From: a virus | Lineage: Duplodnaviria; Caudoviricetes | Direction: 5' to 3' (one strand) | IMG/VR virus record: IMGVR_UViG_3300047276_000505 | Span: 1-57,682 of that record | Length of the DNA stretch: 57,682 nt | Part shown: piece after piece, positions 1,293 through 47,155 of the stretch | Layout of the letters: each line of letters begins with the position of its first letter | Numbering within the stretch: position 1 is the stretch's first letter | Made by a program: the position numbers and the translations under genes | Notes under the pieces: model-generated | What the model was told of the DNA's origin: nothing | Seen by the model: only the letters and a program-made list of their open reading frames with translations | The model's database searches: none

Positions 1293-1835
1293 TTAGTTCT
1301 GAATTGAATTGATTTGATTGAGGCGAGCAAACTCACCAAAGTGTAGCGAAGCAGCTTGGTTGTAAGCCAAGGCTGCTTCTTCTTGTGTTGCGTACATACC
1401 AATGTGTTTGAATTGTTTATCAACACGAATGGATGCACGCCATCGACCAGTCGCTTTAATTAAACAAACACCTTTGTAAATGCTGCTTGTGTTTTTGCGA
1501 CCGTTGCGATTGTGAGAGTTTTGCAGTTTAGTGGCTAAACGCAAAGCTTTGTTGTTGTCTTTGTCATTGTGTACATGATCTACAAACATATTCCCTGGAT
1601 CAGAGCCATGTTGTAGTGCATACACAATGCGATGAGCCATGTAATCCACCGTTTTACCTTGATACTTCCAGCGAACACGCCAATAGTGATCCTTGGTACG
1701 TTGAACACCTGCAATAGAGTTAGCTTTGGTCCAAGCACTTGGCGCTTGAAGCCAGCGCAAACCACTAGGAGATGTTGAATCTAAATAAAACATCTGTTGC
1801 AAATAGTCAACAGGTGGAAGTGGCCTGGGCTTCAT
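1293..1835 (-). CDS. HNH endonuclease with C-terminal AP2 DNA-binding domain
   Basis: AHRIVYAL...VDHVHNDKDNNKALRLAT..QN HNH motif, then SIYKGV...WRASI...HIGMY..EEAALAYN AP2 motif; likely start MKPRPL. Confidence 0.9.
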   Translation of the reverse strand: MKPRPLPPVDYLQQMFYLDSTSPSGLRWLQAPSAWTKANSIAGVQRTKDHYWRVRWKYQGKTVDYMAHRIVYALQHGSDPGNMFVDHVHNDKDNNKALRLATKLQNSHNRNGRKNTSSIYKGVCLIKATGRWRASIRVDKQFKHIGMYATQEEAALAYNQAASLHFGEFARLNQINSIQN

Positions 1836-1862
1836 TGCATTGATTTGAGTAGGTAAATGGAA

Positions 1863-1890
1863 TGGGCAGTTTAACGTCATACCCAGGACG
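1863..1890 (-). ncRNA. H-type pseudoknot element, family C, copy 1
   Basis: CGUC-CUGGGUAU-GACG-UUAAAC-UGCCCA; loop UGGGUA pairs with the 3' UGCCCA; covaries with the copy at 4179-4206. Confidence 0.7.
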
Positions 1891-4998: not shown

Positions 4999-5179
4999 TG
5001 GATTGCTCCTGGTTGGGAAGTTGGATGAGGTCTACGCCAACCATTGCAGAACCAGTGATGGTTGCAATGATGGCGATGAAGATTGCTTGCAAGACTTTGC
5101 TACACAGTGCTTCATGGTGTGTGCGGTAAGTATCTAAGGTGATGTACCTGTTCTTACCCATGGAGTAAAGGCGTTTCAT
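4976..5179 (-). CDS. Small membrane protein (start MKRLYSMG)
   Basis: Hydrophobic segment VLQAIFIAIIATITGSAMVGV; ACTCAA leader after family D copy 1. Confidence 0.6.
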   Translation of the reverse strand: MKRLYSMGKNRYITLDTYRTHHEALCSKVLQAIFIAIIATITGSAMVGVDLIQLPNQEQSNVRSAGY

Positions 5180-5207
5180 CTGAGTTGAGATGTTGAGTGA
5201 ACTGAGT

Positions 5208-5285
5208 GCAGGATGTTGAGTCCTGCAGTAAACCCACCGCACTATACGAATTCGTATCAACGGAAGGGTTAAGTGCAGGCTTCAG
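5208..5285 (-). ncRNA. Long hairpin with an alternative 3' helix, family D, copy 1
   Basis: UGAAGCCUGC-ACUUAA-CCC...GGG-UUUACU-GCAGGACUCAACAUCCUGC; second copy at 5735-5787. Confidence 0.65.
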
Positions 5286-5491
5286 TTCTGCTTAAAGTCT
5301 GCATTCTTGATGCAGTAGTATGTGTCGCCGAGGAAACCATCGACGTACACGAGGTTGTGGTTAGGTTGCTTGTGGCAATTGGCAACGTAGTGGCTGTTGA
5401 GTAGCTTCTGTCCAAAGACAGAGAGCAACAAGCCGATGCCAGTGCCCATGGTAAGAGCTAGCACAGAGTCAACCATGTGGTTCTTAGTCAT
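5282..5491 (-). CDS. Small membrane protein (69 aa)
   Basis: N-terminal TM segment VLALTMGTGIGLLLSVFG. Confidence 0.65.
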   Translation of the reverse strand: MTKNHMVDSVLALTMGTGIGLLLSVFGQKLLNSHYVANCHKQPNHNLVYVDGFLGDTYYCIKNADFKQN

Positions 5492-5493
5492 GA

Positions 5494-5709
5494 TCAGATG
5501 TTGTTCTTGGGAGTGATGATGAATGCCATGTCGTTAGGCATCATGAGTGCTGCTGCACGACAGCGGATGTCATGTAGCTTCTCAGTAGCCTTAGTCTTGG
5601 TTGCAGTATCAGTGACTGCCTTGGTGACTACACGAGCGGTAGTCTGGCTAGCACTGATGGCCCAAGGCATAAACTCACGCATGTTCTTGCGGAAGTTGAG
5701 AGCTGTCAT
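5494..5709 (-). CDS. Hypothetical protein (71 aa)
   Basis: ACTCATCTCAACACA leader after family D copy 2. Confidence 0.65.
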   Translation of the reverse strand: MTALNFRKNMREFMPWAISASQTTARVVTKAVTDTATKTKATEKLHDIRCRAAALMMPNDMAFIITPKNNI

Positions 5710-5734
5710 TGTGTTGAGATGAGTTGAATGGACG

Positions 5735-5787
5735 GCAGGATGTTGAGTCCTGCAGTAAAGGCCCGAAGGCCCTTAGAGCAGGAGTCA
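5735..5787 (-). ncRNA. Family D structured element, copy 2
   Basis: UGACUCCUGC-UCUAA-GGGCC(UUCG)GGCCU-UUACU-GCAGGACUCAACAUCCUGC, with a cUUCGg tetraloop. Confidence 0.65.
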
Positions 5788-5919
5788 TGCCTCAAGCTTG
5801 CAGATGTAGATGAGCAGCTGGTCAAGGATCTCGGTAAGATCCTGGTCGCCAGTGTCACCTACAACTTCGGCAAGCTTGGCGGCTGAGCCGTAGATCTTCT
5901 TGAGTTGATCGGGGTTCAT
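5785..5919 (-). CDS. Small protein (44 aa, MNPDQLKKIYG...)
   Basis: Translated by hand; ACTCAACAACTC leader; fills the gap between genes. Confidence 0.6.
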   Translation of the reverse strand: MNPDQLKKIYGSAAKLAEVVGDTGDQDLTEILDQLLIYICKLEA

Positions 5920-5930
5920 GAGTTGTTGAG

Positions 5931-6179
5931 TTAAAAGATAGTCCCAGCCAAGGTATCGAGATGCATGGTGGCAATGTACTGGTAATAATCAGACATCGCA
6001 GCCAGCAACTCTTTGGTACCACAAGGGATACCACCCATGATTGTCTGGGAGTAACGTTCGATCCAGTCTGGATCTCCCTTGTAGTCATCGACCTGGACTT
6101 GGTAGTGAAGCATGGTTGATTCACCGCCATGCCAGGTGATGCGTTCAGTTGCACCTTCGTATGGGTAGTAGCAGAGCAT
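5931..6179 (-). CDS. Hypothetical protein (82 aa)
   Basis: ACTCAATACA leader after family A copy 1. Confidence 0.65.
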   Translation of the reverse strand: MLCYYPYEGATERITWHGGESTMLHYQVQVDDYKGDPDWIERYSQTIMGGIPCGTKELLAAMSDYYQYIATMHLDTLAGTIF

Positions 6180-6192
6180 TGTATTGAGTTAA

Positions 6193-6261
6193 GCCACCCT
6201 CGGTGGGTGGCAATGACTGGACCAGGGTTTGCACCTGGTCACCCGCTTAGACGGATCAGTC
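6193..6261 (-). ncRNA. tRNA-like three-way junction plus 3' hairpin, family A, copy 1
   Basis: GACUG-A-UCCG(UCUAAG)CGGG-U-GACCAGG(UGCAAAC)CCUGGUC-CAGUC-AUU-GCCACCC/GGGUGGC. Confidence 0.75.
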
Positions 6262-6534
6262 TGTATACATGTCGTCATCACGGTCCTTCTCGCGAAGGTA
6301 CATGATGATGCCACGTATTTCATCCAAGGTTAAATAACCTGTGGGGTTAGATAATCCTGGGAACCAGGCTTCGTAGGTCGTTGGCTGACCTGGAGCAATA
6401 GTGCCCATCAGTCCGGAACCTTTCGGTCCGGTCACGATGGAGATGTTGAATCCAGCAACGGGATCAACATATTCCAGATGCCAACCACCAGTTACGCCTG
6501 GGTGTGGTACCCAACCAAAAGTCAGGTCGATCAT
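6256..6534 (-). CDS. Hypothetical protein (start MIDLTFGW)
   Basis: GGAG SD before ATG 6534; the longer ORF-track start reads through RNA structures. Confidence 0.65.
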   Translation of the reverse strand: MIDLTFGWVPHPGVTGGWHLEYVDPVAGFNISIVTGPKGSGLMGTIAPGQPTTYEAWFPGLSNPTGYLTLDEIRGIIMYLREKDRDDDMYTD

Positions 6535-6550
6535 GGATCTCTCCATAGGT

Positions 6551-6625
6551 GCGGTACCCATCTCCGCTGTGGGTAATACTGAGCCTGGGGTTTGCACCCA
6601 GGCATGCCGCTTTAACGGACTCAGT
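6551..6625 (-). ncRNA. tRNA-like junction plus 3' pseudoknot, family A, copy 2
   Basis: ACUGA-GU-CCG(UUAAAG)CGG-CAU-GCCUGGG(UGCAAAC)CCCAGGC-UCAGU-AUU-ACCCA(CAGCGGAGA)UGGGU-A-CCGC. Confidence 0.75.
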
Positions 6626-6701
6626 CGGTTACGTATCCGATTACGCAACTCACAATGAAAATCGTGATGAGTGCGACGGATTCGTAGGTAGTGAAGTGCA
6701 C
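6621..6701 (-). CDS. 26-aa hydrophobic peptide MHFTTYESVALITIFIVSCVIGYVTD
   Basis: AGGAG SD, GTG start, single TM helix; stop codon embedded in family A copy 2. Confidence 0.6.
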   Translation of the reverse strand: MHFTTYESVALITIFIVSCVIGYVTD

Positions 6702-6718
6702 AGGTAACTCCTGTGTGT

Positions 6719-6792
6719 GCGGTGCCTATCTCCGCTGTAGGCAATAACTGGGCAGGGGTTTGCACCCTGCCGCCCGCTTTAACGGATCAGTT
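6719..6792 (-). ncRNA. tRNA-like junction plus 3' pseudoknot, family A, copy 3
   Basis: AACUG-A-UCCG(UUAAAG)CGGG-C-GGCAGGG(UGCAAAC)CCCUGCC-CAGUU-AUU-GCCUA(CAGCGGAGA)UAGGC-A-CCGC. Confidence 0.75.
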
Positions 6793-7014
6793 GGTCTCCA
6801 GCATCTCGTCCACGTAGGACTTGATGACCTGGAGGTGTTCGGCAGTAAGTACCTGGCTGCGTCCGTGCTCAAGCAGGTCGAGGACCTGGAGCATGACGTT
6901 GTCGCCAGCTTCTTGCCGGGTTGGTACGCCACACATGTCGAAGATCTCCTCGTGTGACATCTCGGTGATGTCCACGCAGTCGATACGACGGACGGTGGCG
7001 ATGGTGTTGGTCAC
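6787..7014 (-). CDS. Hypothetical protein (75 aa)
   Basis: GGAG SD and GTG start after family B copy 3. Confidence 0.7.
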   Translation of the reverse strand: MTNTIATVRRIDCVDITEMSHEEIFDMCGVPTRQEAGDNVMLQVLDLLEHGRSQVLTAEHLQVIKSYVDEMLETN

Positions 7015-7031
7015 GGTGTTACTCCGGTGAG

Positions 7032-7065
7032 CTTGGACTTACGCTGCGGGATTGCAGCTGCCAAG
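7032..7065 (-). ncRNA. Family B structured element, copy 3
   Basis: CUUGG-CA-GCUGC(AAUCCC)GCAGC-GUAAGU-CCAAG. Confidence 0.65.
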
Positions 7066-7146
7066 ACCGTGACGTTGCGACGCTCCTGCTCGGAAACTGT
7101 TCTGTATGAACAAGTGGGGGGCGGGGAGCAGATCTTTCCCGTACGC

Positions 7147-7162
7147 GATACGAATTCGTATC
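7147..7162. promoter_or_regulatory. Perfect palindrome GATACGAATTCGTATC, candidate operator
   Basis: The 14-bp core recurs at 5244-5257. Confidence 0.45.
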
Positions 7163-7460
7163 AGGCAGGGATTTTGTGGATGGACACCGCCTTGTAACCT
7201 TCCTCGGTGGTCCAGATGCGCATGCTTAGCTTATGCTCACACATGTCACAGACCACCTGGAAGAGATACTGGGGTTGGCAGACTTGCCTGACTTCGCTAT
7301 AAATAAAGTCGGCTGAGCTAAACTCCTCGAGCAACTGATACGCCATCTCCACATAGCTGTGGAAAAGCTTGGCGTTACTCTCGGTCGGCCGCTCGCCTAC
7401 TTGACGCCGCCAGTCATGCTGCCAGCGCTGTCCCTTGGGGCTAACTTTGACTTGAGTCAT
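7161..7460 (-). CDS. Hypothetical protein (start MTQVKVSP)
   Basis: AGGAG SD 4 nt upstream of ATG 7460. Confidence 0.65.
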   Translation of the reverse strand: MTQVKVSPKGQRWQHDWRRQVGERPTESNAKLFHSYVEMAYQLLEEFSSADFIYSEVRQVCQPQYLFQVVCDMCEHKLSMRIWTTEEGYKAVSIHKIPA

Positions 7461-7718
7461 GGTTCTCCTGTAGGAATTGACTTGATTTGCCTGCGTTCTT
7501 CGGATGCGCAGCCCCCGCCCTTTCTTTTTTTCTATACGCAACTCGCGTCGCGTGGGGTGTTGGAGAAGCGTCAGGAAATTTTTTATCCTTTTTAGCCCCT
7601 ATAGGGGGCGGTCCTTGCAAAAAGTGTCATTCCCACAGGGGTTTTGCCCAAGAATTTAGACAAAAATGCCGGGGTTTATGGCCCCGGCTATCAACAAAGA
7701 TTCAATTAACGCCTTTAC
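7461..7718. other. Non-coding region between the divergent arms; possible genome terminus, packaging or control region
   Basis: G/C runs alternating with A/T tracts, no convincing gene, near the point where gene orientation switches. Confidence 0.35.
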
Positions 7719-7928
7719 TTATTGATTTGCTTCGTTAAAACGGGAAGAAGCTGCGTAAGCCTTGGCGTATTTCTCGTAATCCGGACGTTCTTCCGACAAT
7801 TTATCCCTGGCACCCGTAATAAAGGCCTTGACTTCAAAGTCTTCAGCCCCTGCTTTCTTCAAATCTTTAGCTGCGTCTGCAATAGCGTACAGAGCAGTGG
7901 CTTTTTCTAAGGCGTACTTGGGGTCCAT
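7719..7928 (-). CDS. Hypothetical protein (69 aa)
   Basis: Helical, natural-looking ORF. Confidence 0.6.
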   Translation of the reverse strand: MDPKYALEKATALYAIADAAKDLKKAGAEDFEVKAFITGARDKLSEERPDYEKYAKAYAASSRFNEANQ

Positions 7929-8048
7929 CGCGTTATTAACCCAAATGTCCAGCGATTCTTTTGGTAATAGTCTACTGTATTCACTTTTTCCCTAAGTTTC
8001 CCGCCTTAAAATACAAAGAACAAGAAATTCATAGCTAATAAGTACCCA

Positions 8049-10847
8049 ATGGCCCTGTCACCTGCCGATTTTGCTGCCTACAGCCGCGCCACTGGTACCC
8101 CATACCCAGAAGATCCGGAGGAAAGGGCTGCTTTAGCCCCGGCAGTTCGTGATTTTCGCGCTAATCAGCTCCGTCAACCGCAACAAGAGTCCCCATTGGC
8201 GGGAATTTTGGGTGCCGCAGCCCTGGGCTTAGGTGCATTAGGGGCTGGTGCGTTTGGTTACCGGGCATTACGCGGTCGTCAGGCGCCTACTCCCGTTGGA
8301 AAGCCTCGTGTTCCGCGTGAATCTGATCTTCGGGCCATATCTCAAGCACCCTTGGTCCGTCCTTCCAAGATTGCAGCACCTGAAACGGCAATTCCGCAGG
8401 CAACTGTAGATCTTACGACGATTCAACAGAGCGAAACGCCTGAAGTTGTCCTTCAACAGAACCAAAGCAACGATACGGGCCTAGATCAACAGGCTGCACG
8501 GGTAACAACCCAAGTAGATCAACGTGATATCGATTCAACTCGCGTAGGCTTTGGCTCACGTCAAGCTCGTTTGATGCAAGAGTTTGGCCAACTTGGTGCG
8601 CCGAGTACTAGTCTTGATGATCCTTCCGTTGCACAAAAACGTGCGGCCTATCAAGCACAGGAAGCTCTTGCTGTTCAAAAGAGTAAAGCTCCTCGTACGG
8701 CCAAAGTTCTTCAAACTCTTGGTCCTCAGTACGGATTAAGTCAAGAAGAAATTTTCCACCGCATTACCGCTTCAGCCAGCGATTATCGCCCTGGCTCCAT
8801 GACGCCGTTGAGTGAACTTGACATTGCTGCTTTACTTGATCCAACAGTTCCGACCAAAGCGGTTTCAGATCTCCTTGGCACTACCCTTGCAGTGCGTGGT
8901 GGCCGCGTTGGTCGGAATTTGGATTATGAAGTTATGGCCGAAGGCGCTGGCATGACGGAACGTGGTTCGGATGTTGAGATTGTCGGTGACACTGGCTCTG
9001 ATGCATATGCTTATAACCCAACGACTGGAAACTTTGAGCTTGACACCAATGCTGACTTAGAAGATCTCAACTTACGTGGCGGTCGTACTAGTGATTACGA
9101 CAATAATGCTGCTGATTATGGTGACGTAGAAGGTCCCGGTGGTTTTGTTTCAACACGAGGATTTAAAGAACGAACTAAAAGCGGTACGACCATTATTCCT
9201 GGTCTTGCCTCGGAAGCAGAAGGTATGGCACCAGGCTCTTTGCGGCAGGAGCGCATAGCTGATCGTGTTATTCCAGCACGCGAAACCGTAGAGGGAGATC
9301 CCGCTGCAGGTTGGACGTTTGATGAAGCAGGCAACGCGGTTCTTGTCGGTACAGGTAAGCGCCTGGTCGAAACACGAACCAATGTTGCAGGTAAGCCAAT
9401 CCGCGTCGTAGATACACGAACTGGTCGTGTGCGTGAACCAGGTTCCTACCAAGGGCGCATCGCTGTTGACGACCCAAGTTATGATCCAACCAGTGGTGGC
9501 AAGTACTCTGGACGTTTACAGCCGGCAACATCAGAAGTATCGCCTGTTATCAATACTCAACCCGTTGTTGAGTTTAAAACAGCTCAAGAACGTTTGATCC
9601 AGGATCCCAAAGGTCGCTGGTGGGTTGACGATTCAAAAACAAAAAAAGTTGGTGAATCGCAACTGCGTGGTCGCGTAGGAAGTGATCCAAACCTCAGGGA
9701 TATTTCCTTAGATCGTCGCGAAGTTAATGCAGTTCTTAGTAAAGCCATTGATCAATGGGATGTTATTAATGCCAGAGGGGAACTTGGACCCATTGATCGT
9801 CAACAACATTTAATTGACAGTCTTAACGGTTATCTTGTTACGCAAAAACGAATTTCTATCCCAATTCTTCAAAGAGATAAAAGTGGCCGTTTGCCTTCTG
9901 AAGCTTATAAGTTCATCAACGACATTACTCCTGGAACTAAAGAATCAAATGTTTATGGACGGCCTGCAAAGCTGAGCCAAAACAACTTGCCAATGATGGT
10001 GAGAAAAGGAGATAAAATTACTTTACTTGTTGATCCTGCTTATAAAAACATGAAGGCAGTACCACTGCCTGGTGTTACAAAGATCAGTGGTACTGGTGGA
10101 GTTTCGGCGCAGGAAGTTGACGCTGATACTTACGAGGGAGATATTTCGTTTTTCTCGCCAACTACTGAAACTGCCCCTCAGGTTGTACGCAACAGAAAGA
10201 CAGGAGAAGTTTTAAGCGCTTCTCAATCAGCGCAAAGCGCTATGGGACAACTCTCCACTGGTGAAATTGTTCCACAACAAGTAGCAGCACCTACTCTTCA
10301 ATTCCAAATTGGTTCTCCTTATTCGCAAAGAACTATTCAAAGAGCTGGTTCTACGTATGTTGCAACTGACTTTACTCCGTTAAATTACTTGCTTCCCGCT
10401 GGCGCCCCGCCAAGTGCCTCTACGACTTATGGCGGTTATTCTCCACGGAGACAATCAACTTCTTCCAATGTTGGAGTACAACTTGTCAATTTACGCAACG
10501 CTCTGGAAACGCCACAGGTTGGTGAAGGCATCAGCCAAATTCCAACGATCAATCAAGCCACTGGTCAACGCGTAGGCTTCTCCCCTGTTTCCAATATTCG
10601 TATTGGCTCATTTGCTCGGACGCAGAATCCATATACTGGAGCTGCCGCTGCTGCCATGGGTCCAGCAGGTCGCGTTTTAACAGGCGATTATCAATACCGC
10701 CCTGACCAGTTAACTATTGATGCTCCTGATTTACCCAATGCACCTGAAGTTTCTGAATACCGCCCTGGTTCGTCTAACGTAGAATCAATGATGCAGAGAA
10801 GCCTGGCTCAGGCTGGTCGTCGTGCAGCAAAACGTCGTAATCGCTAA
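8049..10847 (+). CDS. Large putative virion/internal protein (932 aa)
   Basis: Long ORF heading the late cluster; Gly/Ala hydrophobic segment near the N-terminus; TAAAAT at 8007. Confidence 0.7.
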   Translation: MALSPADFAAYSRATGTPYPEDPEERAALAPAVRDFRANQLRQPQQESPLAGILGAAALGLGALGAGAFGYRALRGRQAPTPVGKPRVPRESDLRAISQAPLVRPSKIAAPETAIPQATVDLTTIQQSETPEVVLQQNQSNDTGLDQQAARVTTQVDQRDIDSTRVGFGSRQARLMQEFGQLGAPSTSLDDPSVAQKRAAYQAQEALAVQKSKAPRTAKVLQTLGPQYGLSQEEIFHRITASASDYRPGSMTPLSELDIAALLDPTVPTKAVSDLLGTTLAVRGGRVGRNLDYEVMAEGAGMTERGSDVEIVGDTGSDAYAYNPTTGNFELDTNADLEDLNLRGGRTSDYDNNAADYGDVEGPGGFVSTRGFKERTKSGTTIIPGLASEAEGMAPGSLRQERIADRVIPARETVEGDPAAGWTFDEAGNAVLVGTGKRLVETRTNVAGKPIRVVDTRTGRVREPGSYQGRIAVDDPSYDPTSGGKYSGRLQPATSEVSPVINTQPVVEFKTAQERLIQDPKGRWWVDDSKTKKVGESQLRGRVGSDPNLRDISLDRREVNAVLSKAIDQWDVINARGELGPIDRQQHLIDSLNGYLVTQKRISIPILQRDKSGRLPSEAYKFINDITPGTKESNVYGRPAKLSQNNLPMMVRKGDKITLLVDPAYKNMKAVPLPGVTKISGTGGVSAQEVDADTYEGDISFFSPTTETAPQVVRNRKTGEVLSASQSAQSAMGQLSTGEIVPQQVAAPTLQFQIGSPYSQRTIQRAGSTYVATDFTPLNYLLPAGAPPSASTTYGGYSPRRQSTSSNVGVQLVNLRNALETPQVGEGISQIPTINQATGQRVGFSPVSNIRIGSFARTQNPYTGAAAAAMGPAGRVLTGDYQYRPDQLTIDAPDLPNAPEVSEYRPGSSNVESMMQRSLAQAGRRAAKRRNR

Positions 10848-20437: not shown

Positions 20438-22726
20438 ATGGCCGACGCCAAAGCCAGGCTTCAAGAAATCATCAACGCTTATCTTGATAAAGATAGCAAT
20501 ATTGTTGTTGATACTGGCATTGTGGCGGCTCACATCGCCCAGATGAAACTTTTTGGTATTCGTCAGGGCGTTGAGTTTTTCCCCGGTCAAGATAACTTCG
20601 GTGCACAGCGCAAAGATTTTATCGACCGGGTGTTGAAGTACAACCGGATGGATACGCGCCTGGATTCCATCTGGGAGTATTTCCTTTGTGATGGCCAGGG
20701 CCTTTTCTACATCCGCCCAACCAAAGCAAACTATCGCCTCTATTACTTCCGTCAACATGAGTACCGTGCGTACTACAACGTTGATGGAGAACTGGATGAA
20801 GTGGTGATTATCTACAGTTATAAGGTCAAGCGTGGAAACGGTTTTGGCGATCAAATTAATACTACTAACCTGACCGGCAACCAAAGTACTTACAACCCTG
20901 GGGCAAAGCGTTATATCCGTCTATCGATCAAAGCAAACGAAATCGAAGAAACCCATTCAGAATCCGAACTGACGTTCGACATGCCGACGTATTCCATCAC
21001 TGGTAATACCAAACAACTCAAGAATTCTCTGGGCTTCATTCCTTGTGTTGAGATTCTCAATAATCCACAAGGTTTCTCGTCCGAGGGTGTTGGTGAGTTT
21101 GATTCCATGGCGAATCACATTGTCACCCATGACGACTTAATGCGAACTATTCGCAAGAACATCACATTCTTCGGTAACCCAACGCTGCTTTCCTCCAGGC
21201 CCAAGACCGATCTGATTGAGTCCGGTGGCGATGGCATGGTCCAGCGTCCATCAATTGCAGCAAACTCTGGTTTTGCCAGCCCATCACCGATGAGTCGGTC
21301 GATGTTTAAGGCCGATCCTGTTAGCCGTGGTGTTGACGGTCAACTTCGTGTTCCACGCGTTATCGCAAACCTGGAGCCAAACGACCGTGTTGGTTACATC
21401 GTTCCTGATGCAATTACTGGTGACCAGAATGCTTTTGCCCGGCAGTACCGCGAGGAAATTCGTACTGCTCTTGGCGGTGTGGATGAGCTGTCGATTTCTG
21501 CTGGTGTTACTGCAACTGAATACAAATCCCTATTTGGGCGCGTCGCTGCGACATCTAAGAAAAAAGCAAATGCCATTTATACCCACGGCATCTGTAGGTG
21601 CCTTGAGTTAATTATTTATCAGGAAGAACAACTCTTCCGTTCCACACTTGCAGCTGCAGCTGGAATTGAGAAGCCAGTGCCTCTGCCTCCTGGTGCACCA
21701 CCGGATGCTGAGCAAGGTTATCAGGATGCTCTTCAGGCTTATAACGACCAGCTCAAAAAGCTTATGATGGCTTTAATTGAGACCCAGATGATTCCACCTG
21801 GGGTTACTGGTCTCATTCCTGATGGTGATGTCACCGTTCAGTGGCGTTGGTTAGGTCCTGTTTATGAGGACTCAACCCAAGACGTGCTCAACAACTCAAT
21901 TGTTGTAAGAAATTTGCAAGAGTTAGGTGTTGATAGCATTGAAGCACTGAAATACCTCTTCCCGTCTAAGACGGATGAGGAACGGGCCTCGATGCTCTCG
22001 GGGTTCCCGTTCAGGATGGTGAACGAATTACAGGGTGCATACTCTCAGTTCGCTCGCCTTGTGGGGGGAATGATGCAAACTCCCCACCCGCAGGCACCGG
22101 ATCTACCGATGGCTGCGGATCCAAGATTGGATTTAACTCCATATCTGTATCGCACCTTAGAAGCTCTACAAAAGGAGATGAGTTATGCAGGACGCTACCG
22201 TCCAATCGATCCCACAGACGAGCCAAGTTCCGGCAGCGGTGGCTCCCAGCAGCTACGTGGCACCGGCACCCAGCAGCTACCAAGCAGCTCCGGCCCCACA
22301 GGCAGCTCCAGTGGCGTATCAAGTGGGTACGAGTTACCCCCAAGCCGTTCCGCAGGCGGCCCCCAGCTACCAATCCGCCCCTACTCAGTACGCCCCCCAA
22401 TCCCAGTCGGAGGCTCCGAGCAGCCCATGGGAATCGGCGTTCAACAAGGTGGTGAACCTGCTGAGCAGTCCAGTTCAATCCCCGTTCCAGGGTCAACAAT
22501 CTCCGACGACTCAGTACAGTCCAGCCAACTACGGTCTGGCCAGCGGCCAACCTACGCAACAATCGGCTCCGCAGACCTGGCAAGCCAACCAGACATTCTC
22601 GCCCAACTCTTCCCCAACCTCCTCCAATCTATCCTTGGAGCAGGTGTCGGAACTCCTGGGGTGGAGCCCGGAAAGCCAGTACGTGGTAAGCGCGTACGGT
22701 CTGGAAGCACCCGCAATCCTAAATAA
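20438..22726 (+). CDS. Portal protein with a long low-complexity C-terminal tail
   Basis: Position between TerL and scaffold/MCP; size; motifs GFIPCVEI.N.P...G.GEF and V.WRW.GP. Confidence 0.8.
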   Translation: MADAKARLQEIINAYLDKDSNIVVDTGIVAAHIAQMKLFGIRQGVEFFPGQDNFGAQRKDFIDRVLKYNRMDTRLDSIWEYFLCDGQGLFYIRPTKANYRLYYFRQHEYRAYYNVDGELDEVVIIYSYKVKRGNGFGDQINTTNLTGNQSTYNPGAKRYIRLSIKANEIEETHSESELTFDMPTYSITGNTKQLKNSLGFIPCVEILNNPQGFSSEGVGEFDSMANHIVTHDDLMRTIRKNITFFGNPTLLSSRPKTDLIESGGDGMVQRPSIAANSGFASPSPMSRSMFKADPVSRGVDGQLRVPRVIANLEPNDRVGYIVPDAITGDQNAFARQYREEIRTALGGVDELSISAGVTATEYKSLFGRVAATSKKKANAIYTHGICRCLELIIYQEEQLFRSTLAAAAGIEKPVPLPPGAPPDAEQGYQDALQAYNDQLKKLMMALIETQMIPPGVTGLIPDGDVTVQWRWLGPVYEDSTQDVLNNSIVVRNLQELGVDSIEALKYLFPSKTDEERASMLSGFPFRMVNELQGAYSQFARLVGGMMQTPHPQAPDLPMAADPRLDLTPYLYRTLEALQKEMSYAGRYRPIDPTDEPSSGSGGSQQLRGTGTQQLPSSSGPTGSSSGVSSGYELPPSRSAGGPQLPIRPYSVRPPIPVGGSEQPMGIGVQQGGEPAEQSSSIPVPGSTISDDSVQSSQLRSGQRPTYATIGSADLASQPDILAQLFPNLLQSILGAGVGTPGVEPGKPVRGKRVRSGSTRNPK

Positions 22727-23864: not shown

Positions 23865-24689
23865 AGCTAGTTCAGATCCTGGTAGGTATAACCTTTCAAG
23901 ATTTGGTAAATAGCTCCGTGGTTGCAGTCAAACTTTTCCGCAATCTTTCGATAAGAAAGTCCTGCTTCTTTTAAAGCTTTGATCTGAGCCACATCCTCCG
24001 AAGAAAATTTTCTCAAAGATTTCTTCGGTGCTCCTTTACTGGCAAAGCCATTGTTTTTATAACAACCGCTCTTCCAGGCTCTTGTTAAATTCTCTTGTTT
24101 GGTAACGATCTCAAGATTGTCAAGTCGATTATTCCTCTTGTCGTTATCTTTGTGATCAACTTGCAGGGAAAAGTTACTGGTTCCGTGAGAACGCAGATCT
24201 AATCCCAAAAAAGCAACAGCCATCAAGACATGAAGATGAAAACGCTTTCTCTTCCCATCGACAAGAACTGAAACACGGTCATAAACACTGGTCGAACGAA
24301 TTGGGATCTCTTGAAAATATTCTTGGTTATCGGGATCAAGTTGTTTTTCAAAAGCTTTTCCTTCTTCTGTTAAGTAAAGATTACCAAATCCAGGGACAAG
24401 TTTTGGATCCATGTTGTTCATGAACAGCTTTCCAAAGCGTAACATACCTCAACTGAACGCTCAACGTTGTCACCCCACCGAGCAATCGATGGGTGCAAAC
24501 CGGATGAATTCAGGGAAGCCCTAACGTAAAGACGAGGGTAATCCTGAGCCAAGCCAATCAAGTCGTGATTGGAAGGTGCAGAGACTACTGGGTGTAACAC
24601 GATCTTGTTACGTAATACCAGATTTAGCGTCCGGCATCCCACAGGGATGAAGAGATAGTCCACCCCTCTAAGAAACTAGAGACCAGGAG
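23865..24689 (+). ncRNA. Group I self-splicing intron (IC3-like)
   Basis: Exon ends in U and intron ends in G; core elements AATTCAGGGAA (P), AATCCTGAGC (Q), GTGCAGAGACT (R), AAGAGATAGTCC (S); IGS CGTTGTCA at 24465-24472 pairs with both exons. Confidence 0.92.
23867..24445 (-). CDS. Intron-encoded HNH homing endonuclease with C-terminal HTH, antisense to the intron
   Basis: HVLMAVAFL...VDHKDNDKRNNRLDNLEIVTKQEN; SYRKIAEKFDCNHGAIYQI. Confidence 0.9.
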   Translation of the reverse strand: MLRFGKLFMNNMDPKLVPGFGNLYLTEEGKAFEKQLDPDNQEYFQEIPIRSTSVYDRVSVLVDGKRKRFHLHVLMAVAFLGLDLRSHGTSNFSLQVDHKDNDKRNNRLDNLEIVTKQENLTRAWKSGCYKNNGFASKGAPKKSLRKFSSEDVAQIKALKEAGLSYRKIAEKFDCNHGAIYQILKGYTYQDLN

Positions 24690-25841
24690 AACGACTTTCC
24701 AAAGATTCTGGGTGCGGAACTTTACCGTCCTCACCCTGCTTACATTGCTGAAATGGCAGTGGAGCCTGTGGTGGTCCACGACTTCACCCGTCAGCCTGGT
24801 CAAACCGTTCAGTTAGACCGCTATAAGTTCTGGGGTACCCCTGGTACTAAGGACAGCCGTGAGCGCGTGTCCGACCAGACCATCGGTACGGCCAACAGCC
24901 GTAACATCACCAAGGAGAAAGTCCTGGTGGTGCTTAAGGAGTACACCGGTCCTGCGGATCCGGGCGACCCCACCCAGCCTTCGACCTTTAAGATCGCTCG
25001 TGAAACTCTGATTACCGCCCAGCGCCTGCTGCTGGACACCGGTAACCTGAACATGTTCCACCAGTCGATCGGCAGCCTGACCCTGCTCGACGACTATCGC
25101 CGTTGGCGTGACCGCGTCTTCATTGACGAACTTGCCAAAGCAGAAGCTAATGGTGCTGCTGGCACTACCCAAGGCGGCTACTACTTCGCTGGTGGCAAGA
25201 CCAAGGATTCCTCTGGTCGCGTGTCCTACACCACCACTGAGTACGGCAACGAAGTTCAGCAGTTCCAGGTTCGTACCGACCTGCTGACCGTTGTTAAGGA
25301 TCTGCGTAAGCGCAACGTGCCGACCTTCGCTGATGGTCTGTATCGCTGCATCTGCGATCCTACTTTCATGATGCACCTGCGTCGTGATCCTGACTTCCGT
25401 GAGATCGCTCGCTACAGCGGCAACCCTGGCCAAGGCATGTACATGGGCAACCCCATGATGCCTAACAACGCCAGCTTCTACATGGGTCCCCAAGCTGGTC
25501 AGGGTTACTTCCTGGCTGGTGAGCCCGTGATGCCTACTGGCGTCCAGTTTGAAGGCGTGAAGTTCTTCGAGTCGACCAACTTCCCGGTCAAGAACGTGAC
25601 CGCCTCCTTCGACGGTGGTTCCACCTACGCTTCCAAGGAAGTGGCTCAGGGTTACTTCTTCGGTCCTCAGTCCGTTGGCGTGGGTATCGGCGGTCCTAAC
25701 GCGCAGGTGCTCATCAACAACAACGATGACTTCAGCCGCTTCATCATCCTGATCTGGCAACTGTACGCTGGTTTCGAGATCCTGAACAAGGACTTCGTGA
25801 CCACCGCCTTCAGCTTCGTCCAGGACGACGGCACCGTCTGA
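24690..25841 (+). CDS. Major capsid protein, exon 2 (spliced product about 387 aa)
   Basis: NDFPKILGAELYRPHPAYIAEM continues into the 362-aa ORF; strong codon bias; follows portal and scaffold. Confidence 0.85.
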   Translation, partial: NDFPKILGAELYRPHPAYIAEMAVEPVVVHDFTRQPGQTVQLDRYKFWGTPGTKDSRERVSDQTIGTANSRNITKEKVLVVLKEYTGPADPGDPTQPSTFKIARETLITAQRLLLDTGNLNMFHQSIGSLTLLDDYRRWRDRVFIDELAKAEANGAAGTTQGGYYFAGGKTKDSSGRVSYTTTEYGNEVQQFQVRTDLLTVVKDLRKRNVPTFADGLYRCICDPTFMMHLRRDPDFREIARYSGNPGQGMYMGNPMMPNNASFYMGPQAGQGYFLAGEPVMPTGVQFEGVKFFESTNFPVKNVTASFDGGSTYASKEVAQGYFFGPQSVGVGIGGPNAQVLINNNDDFSRFIILIWQLYAGFEILNKDFVTTAFSFVQDDGTV

Positions 25842-33146: not shown

Positions 33147-33283
33147 GGCGCGGAATAACGCGTGCCTCAATACCATATCCGGTGTCAAGTGCCTGTCAAT
33201 ACCCTTAAGGAAACTTTCATCTCTTTAGTTTGTTCGAGTAAATGTGTGTTGAATTTAGAATGAATTAACGGCAATTGAAGAGC

Positions 33284-33622
33284 ATGTTTTGCAACGAGCA
33301 CGAGCCCCTCGCCCTGCTAGTTGAAATCACGCCCAAACTTGCAAAGAAAAAATTTAGAGAAAGCATATACGAAGCTTGGCATTACAAATGCGGTTATTGC
33401 GGAGATTCCGCCACAAGCCTGGATCACATTGTACCCAGGTTTAAGTCCGGTTCCTCTAACCGCCACAACTTACTTCCTTGTTGCAGGCGTTGTAACGCCC
33501 ACAAAGGATCAGAGGAAATGAAAAGCTGGTACCAAAAACAAACCTTCTTTTCTTCCGAAACCCTTGGTAAGATTGAAGCCTGGGTCAAACAAGAATCAAC
33601 GTTTATTTTTGGTGAGTGCTGA
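33284..33622 (+). CDS. HNH endonuclease (McrA-like)
   Basis: CGYCG...SLDHIVP...NLLPCCRRCNAHK. Confidence 0.9.
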   Translation: MFCNEHEPLALLVEITPKLAKKKFRESIYEAWHYKCGYCGDSATSLDHIVPRFKSGSSNRHNLLPCCRRCNAHKGSEEMKSWYQKQTFFSSETLGKIEAWVKQESTFIFGEC

Positions 33623-37487: not shown

Positions 37488-37796
37488 ATGCAAAGTGGCA
37501 TGGAGCGATCGGTAGAACCACGAGAGTTTGAACTGCCACTTGAGCTGCAATTCGCCATGCGGAAAGCAGAACTTCAGGCCCAAGAGATGACGTGGGAAGA
37601 ACTGTATTCGGCTCTTTTGAATCTCTATCACCAACGTTTGATGGAATGGCACGCCATCAAAGACATCATGGCTGGTGAGAACATTGAGTTGGATATGGAC
37701 TGGCCAACTGATCTTGAATTAGCAGAACTCGCCGCCGCCTGTATTCAAGGCGACGACGAGGACGATGACGAAGAAGAAGATTTTCAGCCGTTCTGA
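37488..37796 (+). CDS. nblA: NblA-like phycobilisome degradation protein with an acidic tail
   Basis: ELPLELQFAMRKAELQAQEMTWEELYSALLNLYHQ matches the NblA pattern LxLEQQF...MS.EQ...L..LY.Q. Confidence 0.65.
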   Translation: MQSGMERSVEPREFELPLELQFAMRKAELQAQEMTWEELYSALLNLYHQRLMEWHAIKDIMAGENIELDMDWPTDLELAELAAACIQGDDEDDDEEEDFQPF

Positions 37797-46300: not shown

Positions 46301-47155
46301 ATGACAAAGACCCTTGCTACCCTTTGGGATGCCTTTCTGGAAGAGCGTTCCATTTCTTTGTGCCCGACAAGCCTTACCTCTGATTACCGGCAGGTTGGTA
46401 AATGGCTACGTCGTTGTCCTGTTCAAGACATCAACGAAGCACGCAAAATCATGATTTGGGTACTTGGTGAGAAGCCGGTACTTTCTTCAAGACGTGTGGC
46501 CATGTACACAAAAACGATGTTTCGTTGGGCAGCACAAGAAGATGTTGGGTATCTGGAAAAGAATCCTTTGGCAAGTTTTAAGATGCCAAAAGCTCCACAA
46601 AAAGATGAAGAAATTATTGTTATACCGCGTGCTGAAGTTGGATTAGTACTTGCAGCCTTGGAGGCAAAACGAACTTACCGAAATGTCAACTGGGCTTGGT
46701 ACACAGAGTTTATGCTTCAAACTGCTATGCGTACAGGCGAAGTACGAGCACTGCGTTGGGACGATATCAAAGATAATAAAATCCTGGTACATTCCAACTG
46801 GACATTGACGCACGGCCTAAAAGACAGCACTAAAACAAACAAGAAACGGTGGGTACCGCTTAACAATAAGTGTCAGGAAATCCTAACAAAACTTCCGCAA
46901 AATGAAGAATACGTTTTCCCTTGGGACCGCCTTGCGTTTCAGAGTTATTTCAGAAAAAAGCTAACACCTCTCCACAATGTACAGTTAATTTCGCATTTAT
47001 ATCGTCCATATGATTGTCGACATACAGCCATTAGTCGATGGATTGAAGCAGGTATTCCTGTGCCACAAGTCGCCTCATGGGCTGGAAATACTTCAGAAAT
47101 TATTTTCAAGCATTACTGCAACAGCACCAAAGAATATGAGATGCCAGAGTTGTAG
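46301..47155 (+). CDS. Tyrosine recombinase/integrase
   Basis: TAMRTGE, TKT, YDCRHT, AGN...KHY catalytic residues. Confidence 0.9.
   Translation: MTKTLATLWDAFLEERSISLCPTSLTSDYRQVGKWLRRCPVQDINEARKIMIWVLGEKPVLSSRRVAMYTKTMFRWAAQEDVGYLEKNPLASFKMPKAPQKDEEIIVIPRAEVGLVLAALEAKRTYRNVNWAWYTEFMLQTAMRTGEVRALRWDDIKDNKILVHSNWTLTHGLKDSTKTNKKRWVPLNNKCQEILTKLPQNEEYVFPWDRLAFQSYFRKKLTPLHNVQLISHLYRPYDCRHTAISRWIEAGIPVPQVASWAGNTSEIIFKHYCNSTKEYEMPEL

Follow-up and report, generated by a model that had tools for sequence, protein, structure and literature searches.

Putative anticodon-less tRNA mimics between early genes of a freshwater cyanophage, and a covarying RNA family common to several cyanophage lineages

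Plant mitochondrial t-elements and mascRNA at the 3' end of MALAT1 are RNAs of the t-element type, in which a tRNA-like fold lies inside a longer transcript, at the border of functional RNAs, and keeps the stack of acceptor and T arms and the T-loop without decoding. Three enzymes, RNase Z, RNase P and the CCA-adding enzyme, gauge about 12 base pairs (bp) of a tRNA starting at its elbow, and in Bacillus, U residues after a discriminator-like base are favourable to RNase Z. Among phages, RNase III sites punctuate the early messenger RNA (mRNA) of T7, and T4-type phages carry PeSL cassettes, which are mobile regulatory cassettes of a promoter and a stem-loop. The subject of this study was a three-way junction RNA motif found in three copies in the 57,682-nucleotide (nt) IMG/VR virus record IMGVR_UViG_3300047276_000505, a cyanophage sequence estimated to be 73% complete, the whole of which is called the window here. 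Among the systems described, the tRNA-like t-elements of Haloferax are reported to be cut by RNase P and RNase Z (PMC6546412), and the reported non-tRNA substrates of RNase P include the C4 RNA of phages P1 and P7, phage M3 RNA, operon mRNAs and the tRNA-like ends of plant viruses (PMC11143913).

The motif belongs among the known tRNA-like elements embedded in transcripts, and it is unusual in several respects. Unlike t-elements, it lies in polycistronic phage mRNA, with the stop codon of the upstream gene in the acceptor-like stem. Its stacked stems are split 5+7, compared with 7+5 in tRNA-like elements. In place of the D, anticodon and variable arms it has a hairpin of 3 bp and a 6-nt loop, the position equivalent to 55 is usually G, and cleavage is a prediction. 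The spread across cyanophage lineages is also unusual.

Minihelices and micro-pre-tRNAs, the minimal acceptor/T-arm substrates, resemble the motif in the coaxial stack of about 12 bp, the 7-nt T-loop and the unpaired discriminator-like base. The RNase P substrates reported in PMC11143913 do so as well. Unlike these minimal substrates, the motif occurs in nature as a widespread, conserved family; it has an extra hairpin predicted to form an elbow, and an NUU tail with no CCA encoded. The tRNA-like domain of transfer-messenger RNA (tmRNA) shares with it the acceptor and T arms, the reduced D region, the lack of an anticodon arm, and a short frame with its stop nearby. On the other hand, the motif has no pseudoknot ring, tag frame, resume codon or G3·U70 pair, and is internal to an mRNA. 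The RNase III sites of T7 are also structured elements between early genes, with the presumed role of dividing the polycistron into pieces whose ends carry stabilising structures, but they are long irregular hairpins rather than tRNA mimics, and the presumed enzyme differs. PeSL cassettes are likewise short conserved modules between small early genes at mosaic breakpoints. They differ in that the conserved part of the motif is a covarying RNA structure, and no sigma-70-like promoter was found in 5000-8200 of the window.

No description of the motif was found in searches of the literature. The family appears to be undescribed and is common to several unrelated cyanophage lineages. Fremin et al. 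(2023) reported 8,495 unnamed candidate RNAs predicted from IMG/VR (PMC10690425), and the supplementary tables of that paper may already list it.

All three copies in the window were on the minus strand, exactly where a first-pass annotation of the sequence had placed three such junctions, and they were all that the 57.7 kb contained. They had a common layout. A 5-bp stem (P1) enclosed a hairpin (P2, CCG-UYWAAG-CGG) and a 7-bp stem (P3) capped by UGCAAAC, with linkers J12 and J23 before and after P2. P3 continued into the 3' strand of P1 without a linker, in these three as in all aligned copies. AUU followed each copy, and then a pseudoknot (Copies A and B) or a hairpin (Copy C), and the upstream UGA overlapped the 5' strand of P1 in each case, all as first annotated. 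The next start codons lay 44, 43 and 35 nt beyond P1 (Copies A, B and C). The features of the locus, with its open reading frames (ORFs), were as follows.

6746-6792, minus strand: Copy A; P1 6792-6788/6750-6746, J12 (AU) 6787-6786, P2 6785-6774, J23 (GC) 6773-6772, P3 6771-6765/6757-6751, T-loop UGCAAAC 6764-6758; cmsearch 76.1 bits.
6789-6787, minus strand: UGA stop of ORF 6787-7014, in the P1 5' strand of Copy A.
6743-6745, minus strand: AUU tail of Copy A, a discriminator-like A and UU.
6719-6742, minus strand: pseudoknot after Copy A; S1 GCCU/AGGC, loop GCGG pairing with downstream CCGC.
6699-6718, minus strand: hairpin with Shine-Dalgarno sequence and start codon (ACAGGAGUUACCUGUG); GUG start of the 26-amino-acid ORF 6621-6701.
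6578-6625, minus strand: Copy B; P1 6625-6621/6582-6578, P2 6618-6607, T-loop 6596-6590, variant linkers J12 GU and J23 CAU; cmsearch 61.3 bits.
6623-6621, minus strand: UGA stop of ORF 6621-6701, in the P1 5' strand of Copy B.
6577-6575 and 6574-6551, minus strand: AUU and pseudoknot after Copy B; AUG of a 92-amino-acid ORF at 6534.
6215-6261, minus strand: Copy C; P1 6261-6257/6219-6215, P2 6254-6243, T-loop 6233-6227, J12 AU and J23 GU; cmsearch 76.2 bits.
6258-6256, minus strand: UGA stop of ORF 6256-6534, in the P1 5' strand of Copy C.
6214-6212 and 6211-6193, minus strand: AUU and 7-bp hairpin GCCACCC-ACCGA-GGGUGGC after Copy C; AUG of the 82-amino-acid ORF 5931-6179 13 nt further on.

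The pattern CCGTNNAAGCGG-N8-12-TGCAAAC, covering P2 and the loop, matched the window three times, compared with no match in 100 shuffles. The listed scores were those of covariance model R1 (cmsearch); the next match in the window reached only 11.1 bits (E 0.43).

The same pattern of P2 and loop matched at least 118 IMG/VR viral contigs. The three-way junction was present in at least 114 IMG/VR contigs, and in the phages S-EIVl and P-SSP7. The window, S-EIVl and the 118 contigs listed gave 152 pattern matches, 148 of them with at least six of the seven P3 pairs. When the strict pattern was applied to prokaryote genomes (one per species), none of the 120 matches listed was genuine, although cyanobacterial genomes may carry copies. 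The P3 pairing of these listed matches was chance-like, with 0-6 of 7 pairs and a mode of 2-3.

An alignment (A1) of 113 distinct copies from other phages, among the matches listed, was used for covariation. Standard pairs filled 97.3% of its cells, compared with 77.4% after shuffling, and moving the 3' partners by one column brought the pairing down to 48%. Changes on both sides were seen in all five P1 pairs and in six of the seven P3 pairs. The junction strands were also linked. J12 was AU in 93 copies with a dinucleotide J23 (mostly GU; G-initial in 88), and GU in 20 copies whose J23 was CAU or CGU.

Diverged copies were examined for P2, because the search pattern had held it fixed. A cmsearch around the first matches gave 174 hits at E up to 0.05 in 100 sources. 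A structural scan gave 182 hits (134 distinct) and none on a reversed control sequence; it recovered copies with U at T-loop position 2, which model R1 misses. From these, an alignment (A4) of 78 selected rows was made, with 35 variants, 40 random canonical copies and the three window copies. All three inner P2 pairs showed compensation (CG 68/UA 4; CG 62/AU 6/GC 4; GC 72/CG 2). In a separate count, G·U or U·G filled 170 cells, among which the invariant U·G that tops P2 made up 113, and A·C or C·A filled only six. The large excess of G·U over A·C identified the RNA of the gene strand as the molecule under selection.

The stack of P1 on P3 held 12 standard pairs in 74 of the 113 copies, 11 in 29 and 10 in 10. 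The 12-bp stack claimed in the first-pass annotation therefore stood for all three window copies, but not for the family, in which 11-12 bp is the better description. The stack was not prolonged, as a further pair was possible in 20 of 113 copies against 24.4 expected. One copy (L020 671-721) split it 6+6, as judged by eye. An acceptor-like stem coaxially continuous with a T-arm-like stem over about 12 bp, both helices covarying, is the arrangement of t-elements and minihelices.

In the cmsearch alignment (A2), the first position of the P3 loop was U in 129 of 129 copies, the fourth was A in 127 and G in two, and the fifth was A in all 129; positions 6-7 were variable. The closing pair was G-C in 111 of 113 copies. 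By this comparison the loop carries the T-loop signature: U54, R57 and A58, free 59-60, and the pair G53-C61. The U at position 1 and the A at position 5 would form the reverse-Hoogsteen pair of a T-loop. The lower-scoring copies had the loops UGCGAGU (P-SSP7), UGUGAGU, UUUGAUG, UUCAAUG and the tRNA-type UUCGAUU, and the structural scan added UUCAACU, UUCAAUU and UUCAACG. U1, R4 and A5 were kept in these diverged copies, as the first reading of the motif as an anticodon-less tRNA-like fold with a T-loop would predict. The scan demanded U1, R4 and A5, so the signature is partly built in for the copies with U at position 2.

A contact between the P2 loop and the T-loop, earlier suggested as a target for SHAPE-type probing, is also indicated by covariation. 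For these counts P2 was read as 3 bp with the 6-nt loop U-N-N-A-x-y, in 141 distinct scan hits (control, 12 hits). The last base (y) and T-loop position 3, which would correspond to 19-56 of tRNA, were G/C in 129. Only two true copies had U at T-loop position 3 (L042 6446-6500 and L102 13554-13608), and both had A at y. The penultimate base (x) and T-loop position 2, the 18-55-like pair, were A/G in 118, G/U in eight, C/G in five and A/U in one. The convincing copies with U at position 2 had G at x, except one (L090) with A-U. In A4, y-3 was GC in 73, AU in two and other in one, and x-2 was GU in eight, CG in four, AU in one and other (A·G) in 63. The contact would mirror G19-C56 and G18·Ψ55 of tRNA. 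The evidence for it is good but not conclusive, because the independent events are few. Two further loci, L028 6156-6209 (minus) and L079 1067-1123 (plus), had a tRNA-type T arm, GG.AGGG-UUCGACU-CCCU.CC, and an AUU tail; their P2 region was atypical and broke the 18-55 rule.

The interpretation of the three copies, between early genes of a freshwater cyanophage, as putative anticodon-less mimics of the acceptor arm, T arm and elbow of tRNA is thus well supported by the covariation.

The motif was not a known RNA class. With Rfam 15 at gathering thresholds, a group I intron at 24440-24682 was the sole match in the whole window, and the region 5800-7200 stayed empty even at E up to 10, tRNA included. 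In four other motif-bearing loci Rfam 15 found only a glutamine-II riboswitch beside the motif, and nothing for the motif itself. These comparisons agreed with the first annotator's failure to assign a named family. ARAGORN found no tRNA or tmRNA in the window or in five motif-bearing loci.

Several candidates were set aside on these and other grounds. A canonical tRNA did not fit: there is no cloverleaf with anticodon and D arms, only a 12-nt hairpin separates the acceptor-like and T-like stems, and ARAGORN and Rfam were empty. The idea of a tmRNA came from reported phage two-piece tmRNAs adjoining glutamine riboswitches (PMC9004378). It was rejected as ARAGORN and Rfam were empty and the third P1 pair was C-G in 76 of 113 copies, with no G3·U70. 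Hammerhead and k-turn readings of CUGAU were ruled out by eye, and Rfam had no match. A promoter for the RNA polymerase of phage Syn5 was considered in GGGCACC of the pseudoknot and discarded: S-EIVl and the window are without a T7-type polymerase, Syn5 is without the motif, and the element covaries as a pseudoknot. An intrinsic terminator was rejected because a terminator scan flagged no copy. A canonical one was present at 7688-7668 (minus; GCCGGGG-CCAUAAA-CCCCGGC then AUUUUUG), between ORF 7719-7928 and the operon that bears the three motifs.

The sequence 3' of the stack was also conserved. The tail in the 113 copies was AUU in 98, CUU in ten, UUU in two, GUU in two and ACU in one, so that NUU was found in 112. 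A helix began directly 3' of the tail in 102 of 117 distinct downstream contexts, as a simple hairpin in 60 and as a pseudoknot-like element in 42. The remaining 15 differed, mostly in having the longer leader of podoviruses.

In the pseudoknots, 98.1% of the S2 cells paired, and three of the four S2 pairs were compensated (GCGG/CCGC, GUGG/CCAC, GCAG/CUGC). The outer S1 pair was G-C in 28 and A-U in 14 of the 42 sequences. The elements after Copies A and B are of the H type in that a loop pairs 3' of its hairpin and this pairing covaries. Their 1-nt loop 3 would be odd for a coaxial H-type fold. After pseudoknot-type modules, in the window (6699-6718 and 6534-6550, minus) and at many loci, the Shine-Dalgarno sequence GGAG and the start codon lay in a small hairpin. 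Its 5' arm changed with the start codon (CAUGGAG..CCAUG, CACGGAG..CCGUG, ACAGGAG..CCUGUG).

On the 5' side, a stop codon began 10 to 3 nt 5' of P2 in all 138 distinct contexts. The frame of that stop was the longest upstream-open frame in 97 of them, with a median open length of 69.5 codons compared with 16.5 in the other frames. Where UGA had become UAA by a G-to-A change, the 3' strand had a matching C-to-U change. In contexts other than those of podoviruses, the longest upstream frame stopped in P1 or J12 in 91 of 115. Of 23 podovirus-type contexts, 17 had this frame stop at a UAA within the P2 loop.

The motif was found in phages of quite different kinds. S-EIVl, a Synechococcus phage with a complete genome and the only GenBank phage related to the window phage at the DNA level, had two copies. 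In T7-like cyanopodoviruses of the P-SSP7 type, the motif stood between psbA and the capsid gene gp10, directly after a glutamine-II riboswitch and its short ORF. P-SSP7 itself had a single copy (20629-20682, 29.8 bits), in which P2 was compensated (CGG/CCG). The motif stood ahead of the capsid gene in a relative of Syn5 whose capsid protein is 84% identical. In relatives of Prochlorococcus phage P-SCSP1, with an RNA polymerase about 63% identical, its place was upstream of the polymerase gene, within the early region. Contrary to the first annotation, the motif is therefore not specific to early operons, since in the T7-like cyanopodoviruses, P-SSP7 included, it lies directly ahead of the major capsid gene. 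Nor does it punctuate a whole operon: there were one to four copies per locus, in successive neighbouring gaps between genes.

The riboswitch (RF01704) lay at 1413-1466 of L123 (P-SSP7) and 304-368 of L018, with 48.1 and 52.1 bits. In the podoviruses it preceded a 17-20-codon ORF with a YRGV.Y motif, which ended at the UAA of the P2 loop upstream of the capsid gene.

The window and S-EIVl had no T7-type RNA polymerase in a search with a positive control. The motif occurs whether the host or a phage polymerase transcribes it, and the phages that carry it are unrelated but share a host group; this pointed to a post-transcriptional role via a host factor.

We interpret the motif tentatively, at somewhat short of an even chance, as a t-element-like processing and stabilising signal in phage mRNA, which would be cut near AUU by RNase Z, or else by RNase E or RNase P. 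Each copy would be a cis-acting mRNA module, of which the first part folds as the top half of a tRNA. P1 would be the acceptor-like stem stacked on the T arm (P3), and P2 would stand in for the D arm and meet the T-loop in an elbow. A host enzyme that measures tRNAs from the elbow would then cut at or beside the NUU tail. The likeliest cutter would be RNase Z, after the discriminator-like A; RNase E in AUU, or RNase P on the 5' side, would be alternatives. The cut would leave a protective tRNA-like 3' end on the upstream mRNA. The downstream mRNA would receive a hairpin or pseudoknot 0-2 nt from its 5' end, shielding it from decay that depends on the 5' end. The conserved module could double as a homology patch for the exchange of cassettes between phages.

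A terminating ribosome would have to melt the fold, because the upstream stop lies in P1 (in the P2 loop in podoviruses), and processing would be coupled to translation of the upstream frame. An extension of this idea, which we consider doubtful, is that the motif is a ribosome-gated cut site. While a ribosome is completing the upstream frame, the fold could not form, and the host enzymes of tRNA 3' or 5' processing could not cut. In podoviruses of the P-SSP7 type, where that frame is the short ORF switched on by the glutamine riboswitch, the mimic would make the fate of the capsid mRNA depend on cellular nitrogen status.

Several observations weigh against a processing signal of this kind. 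At AUU, RNase E would have just 3 nt of single-stranded RNA, a short target, and AUU is a poor fit to the reported signature of the cyanobacterial enzyme, which in single-stranded RNA has A at -3 and U at +2 (PMC8682795). In favour of RNase E, P-SSP7 is reported to induce the host enzyme (PMC9692554), in a paper that does not treat the capsid leader of that phage. A cut by RNase P at the 5' base of P1 would cost the upstream ORF its stop codon. This makes a cut on the 3' side more sensible, and RNase P was ranked lower for this reason. One S-EIVl copy, read from the sequence, retained the UGA without any ORF ending there, which suggested that the UGA may be a structural or inherited feature and not a gate. 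T-loop position 2 was G rather than U in most copies, and the outermost P1 pair was non-standard in 27 of 113.

When the copies were folded as single sequences, only Copy C had the junction in its minimum-energy structure (z -4.34). In the nested minimum-energy structures of Copies A and B, the P2 3' strand paired instead with the CCGC of the pseudoknot (z about -1.2), and P1 and P2 were not recovered. This alternative pairing showed no covariation. Only 1-4 adjacent gaps bore the motif, and other gaps of the same operon used other hairpins. Syn5 and P-SCSP1a had no motif although their relatives carried one, so that it is dispensable. None of the sequencing runs found to contain this stretch is recorded as RNA, and four runs compared with it, two of them possibly RNA and two from the study of the best-matching run, gave at most short contigs over 6716-6893 and 7189-7600.

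The positions of the stops and starts are also what would be expected if the motif were an uncut structural spacer that organises translation. A ribosome would melt it, and its refolding would bring the stop and the next start close together or insulate the next ribosome-binding site, so that neighbouring genes are coupled or uncoupled. The stops in P1, J12 or the P2 loop, the next starts 35-44 nt beyond P1 in the window, and the start-codon hairpins that follow pseudoknot-type modules and change with the start codon all suit such a spacer. So does the identity of the podovirus frame ending in the motif, which is the short ORF under the glutamine-II riboswitch. On the other hand, a T-loop, an elbow contact and a fixed 11-12-bp stack would be needless for a spacer, the next start in podoviruses is about 120 nt off, and the orphan UGA of S-EIVl does not fit. 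We regard the spacer as unlikely.

A comparison of the window with its closest relative (L092), in which the flanks are about 95% identical, showed an extra stretch at 6588-6264 of the window, from inside Copy B to inside Copy C, which contained the 92-amino-acid ORF. After the hairpin of Copy C the two were unrelated for about 400 nt, and then similarity resumed. The 82-amino-acid ORF after Copy C was found behind other motif variants in other contigs. From this alignment the copies appear to mark the borders of swapped gene cassettes.

These borders could mean that the motif is primarily an evolutionary linker, which lets unrelated cyanophages swap small cassettes by homologous recombination, as in the promoter-stem-loop cassettes of T4-type phages, with any RNA function secondary. 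The patchy occurrence, with absence from Syn5 and P-SCSP1a and presence in their relatives, and the loops that are nearly identical over four phage lineages are consistent with a linker. However, recombination needs identity and not structure, and the compensated stems and the excess of G·U over A·C show selection on the RNA. The copies within one genome differ in their stems and are therefore not recent duplicates, and the region 5000-8200 has no promoter-like site. A linker as the primary function is quite doubtful.

A trans-acting decoy or sponge, within the mRNA or as an RNA of about 50 nt, is very unlikely. It could bind a tRNA-processing or tRNA-modifying enzyme, a tRNA-targeting defence nuclease or the ribosomal E site, and the tRNA-like stack, T-loop and elbow contact would serve it well. 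It would also accommodate the occurrence in unrelated phages of one host group (the closest named relatives all infect Synechococcus or Prochlorococcus) and up to four copies per locus. However, the lack of an anticodon arm disqualifies anticodon nucleases as targets. The placement of the motif, held strictly between a stop and the next start and always on the gene strand, looks cis-acting, and P-SSP7 has a single copy.

An aptamer that senses a ligand, with the hairpin or pseudoknot as its expression platform, is extremely improbable. A three-way junction with a loop-loop contact upstream of start codons, sometimes in tandem copies, has the look of a riboswitch, but J23 varies (GU, GA, GC, GG, UU, CAU), unlike a ligand pocket. 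No conserved alternative pairing between P1 and the downstream element was found, the GCGG/CCGC alternative does not covary, and the downstream genes are mutually unrelated. That P3, a GC-rich 7-bp hairpin followed by CAGUUAUU, acts as a weak intrinsic terminator or attenuator between genes is scarcely credible. The scan flagged no copy, and the canonical terminator of this operon, which does have a U run, lies at 7688-7668. Termination would have no use for P1, P2, the T-loop signature or the elbow covariation, and the motif occurs under host and phage RNA polymerases alike.

Other features were noted in the window. The phage encodes an integrase, NblA, a terminase and a primase-polymerase, and it is S-EIVl-like and possibly temperate. 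The ORFs included an HNH-AP2 homing-endonuclease-like one at 1296-1880 (minus), inside the small-gene operon, a second HNH ORF at 33275-33619 (plus), an NblA-like phycobilisome degradation protein at 37488-37793 (plus) and a tyrosine integrase at 46301-47152 (plus). The group I intron (24440-24682, plus) matched Rfam RF00028 over the full-length model with 90.9 bits, and lay just 5' of ORF 24753-25838.

A second repeated intergenic element was present in the same leftward operon, at 5198-5232 and 5725-5759 (minus, 89% identical). It read UUUACU and then a hairpin, GCAGGA-CUCAACA-UCCUGC, about 30 nt before the next AUG. A GGCC-UUCG-GGCC hairpin lay ahead of it at 5775-5764. A 48-nt direct repeat (1849-1896/4165-4212, 79% identical) was found further down the operon.

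Function aside, the motif is a large, cleanly covarying and unannotated RNA family, and its 5+7 stack and 12-nt hairpin make it a minimal model, supplied by nature, for the elbow of tRNA. The borders of cassette exchange at the motif bear on the evolution of the early regions of cyanophages. If the proposed function holds, phages of the main ocean and lake picocyanobacteria would use the host tRNA-maturation machinery to cut and stabilise their messages, with a signal that is portable across lineages. The presence of the motif in the model phage P-SSP7, between a glutamine riboswitch and the capsid gene, makes this directly testable. Ribosome-gated cutting, if true, would parallel in bacteria and phages the tRNA punctuation of mitochondria, with a translational gate added, and would couple mRNA processing and stability to translation.

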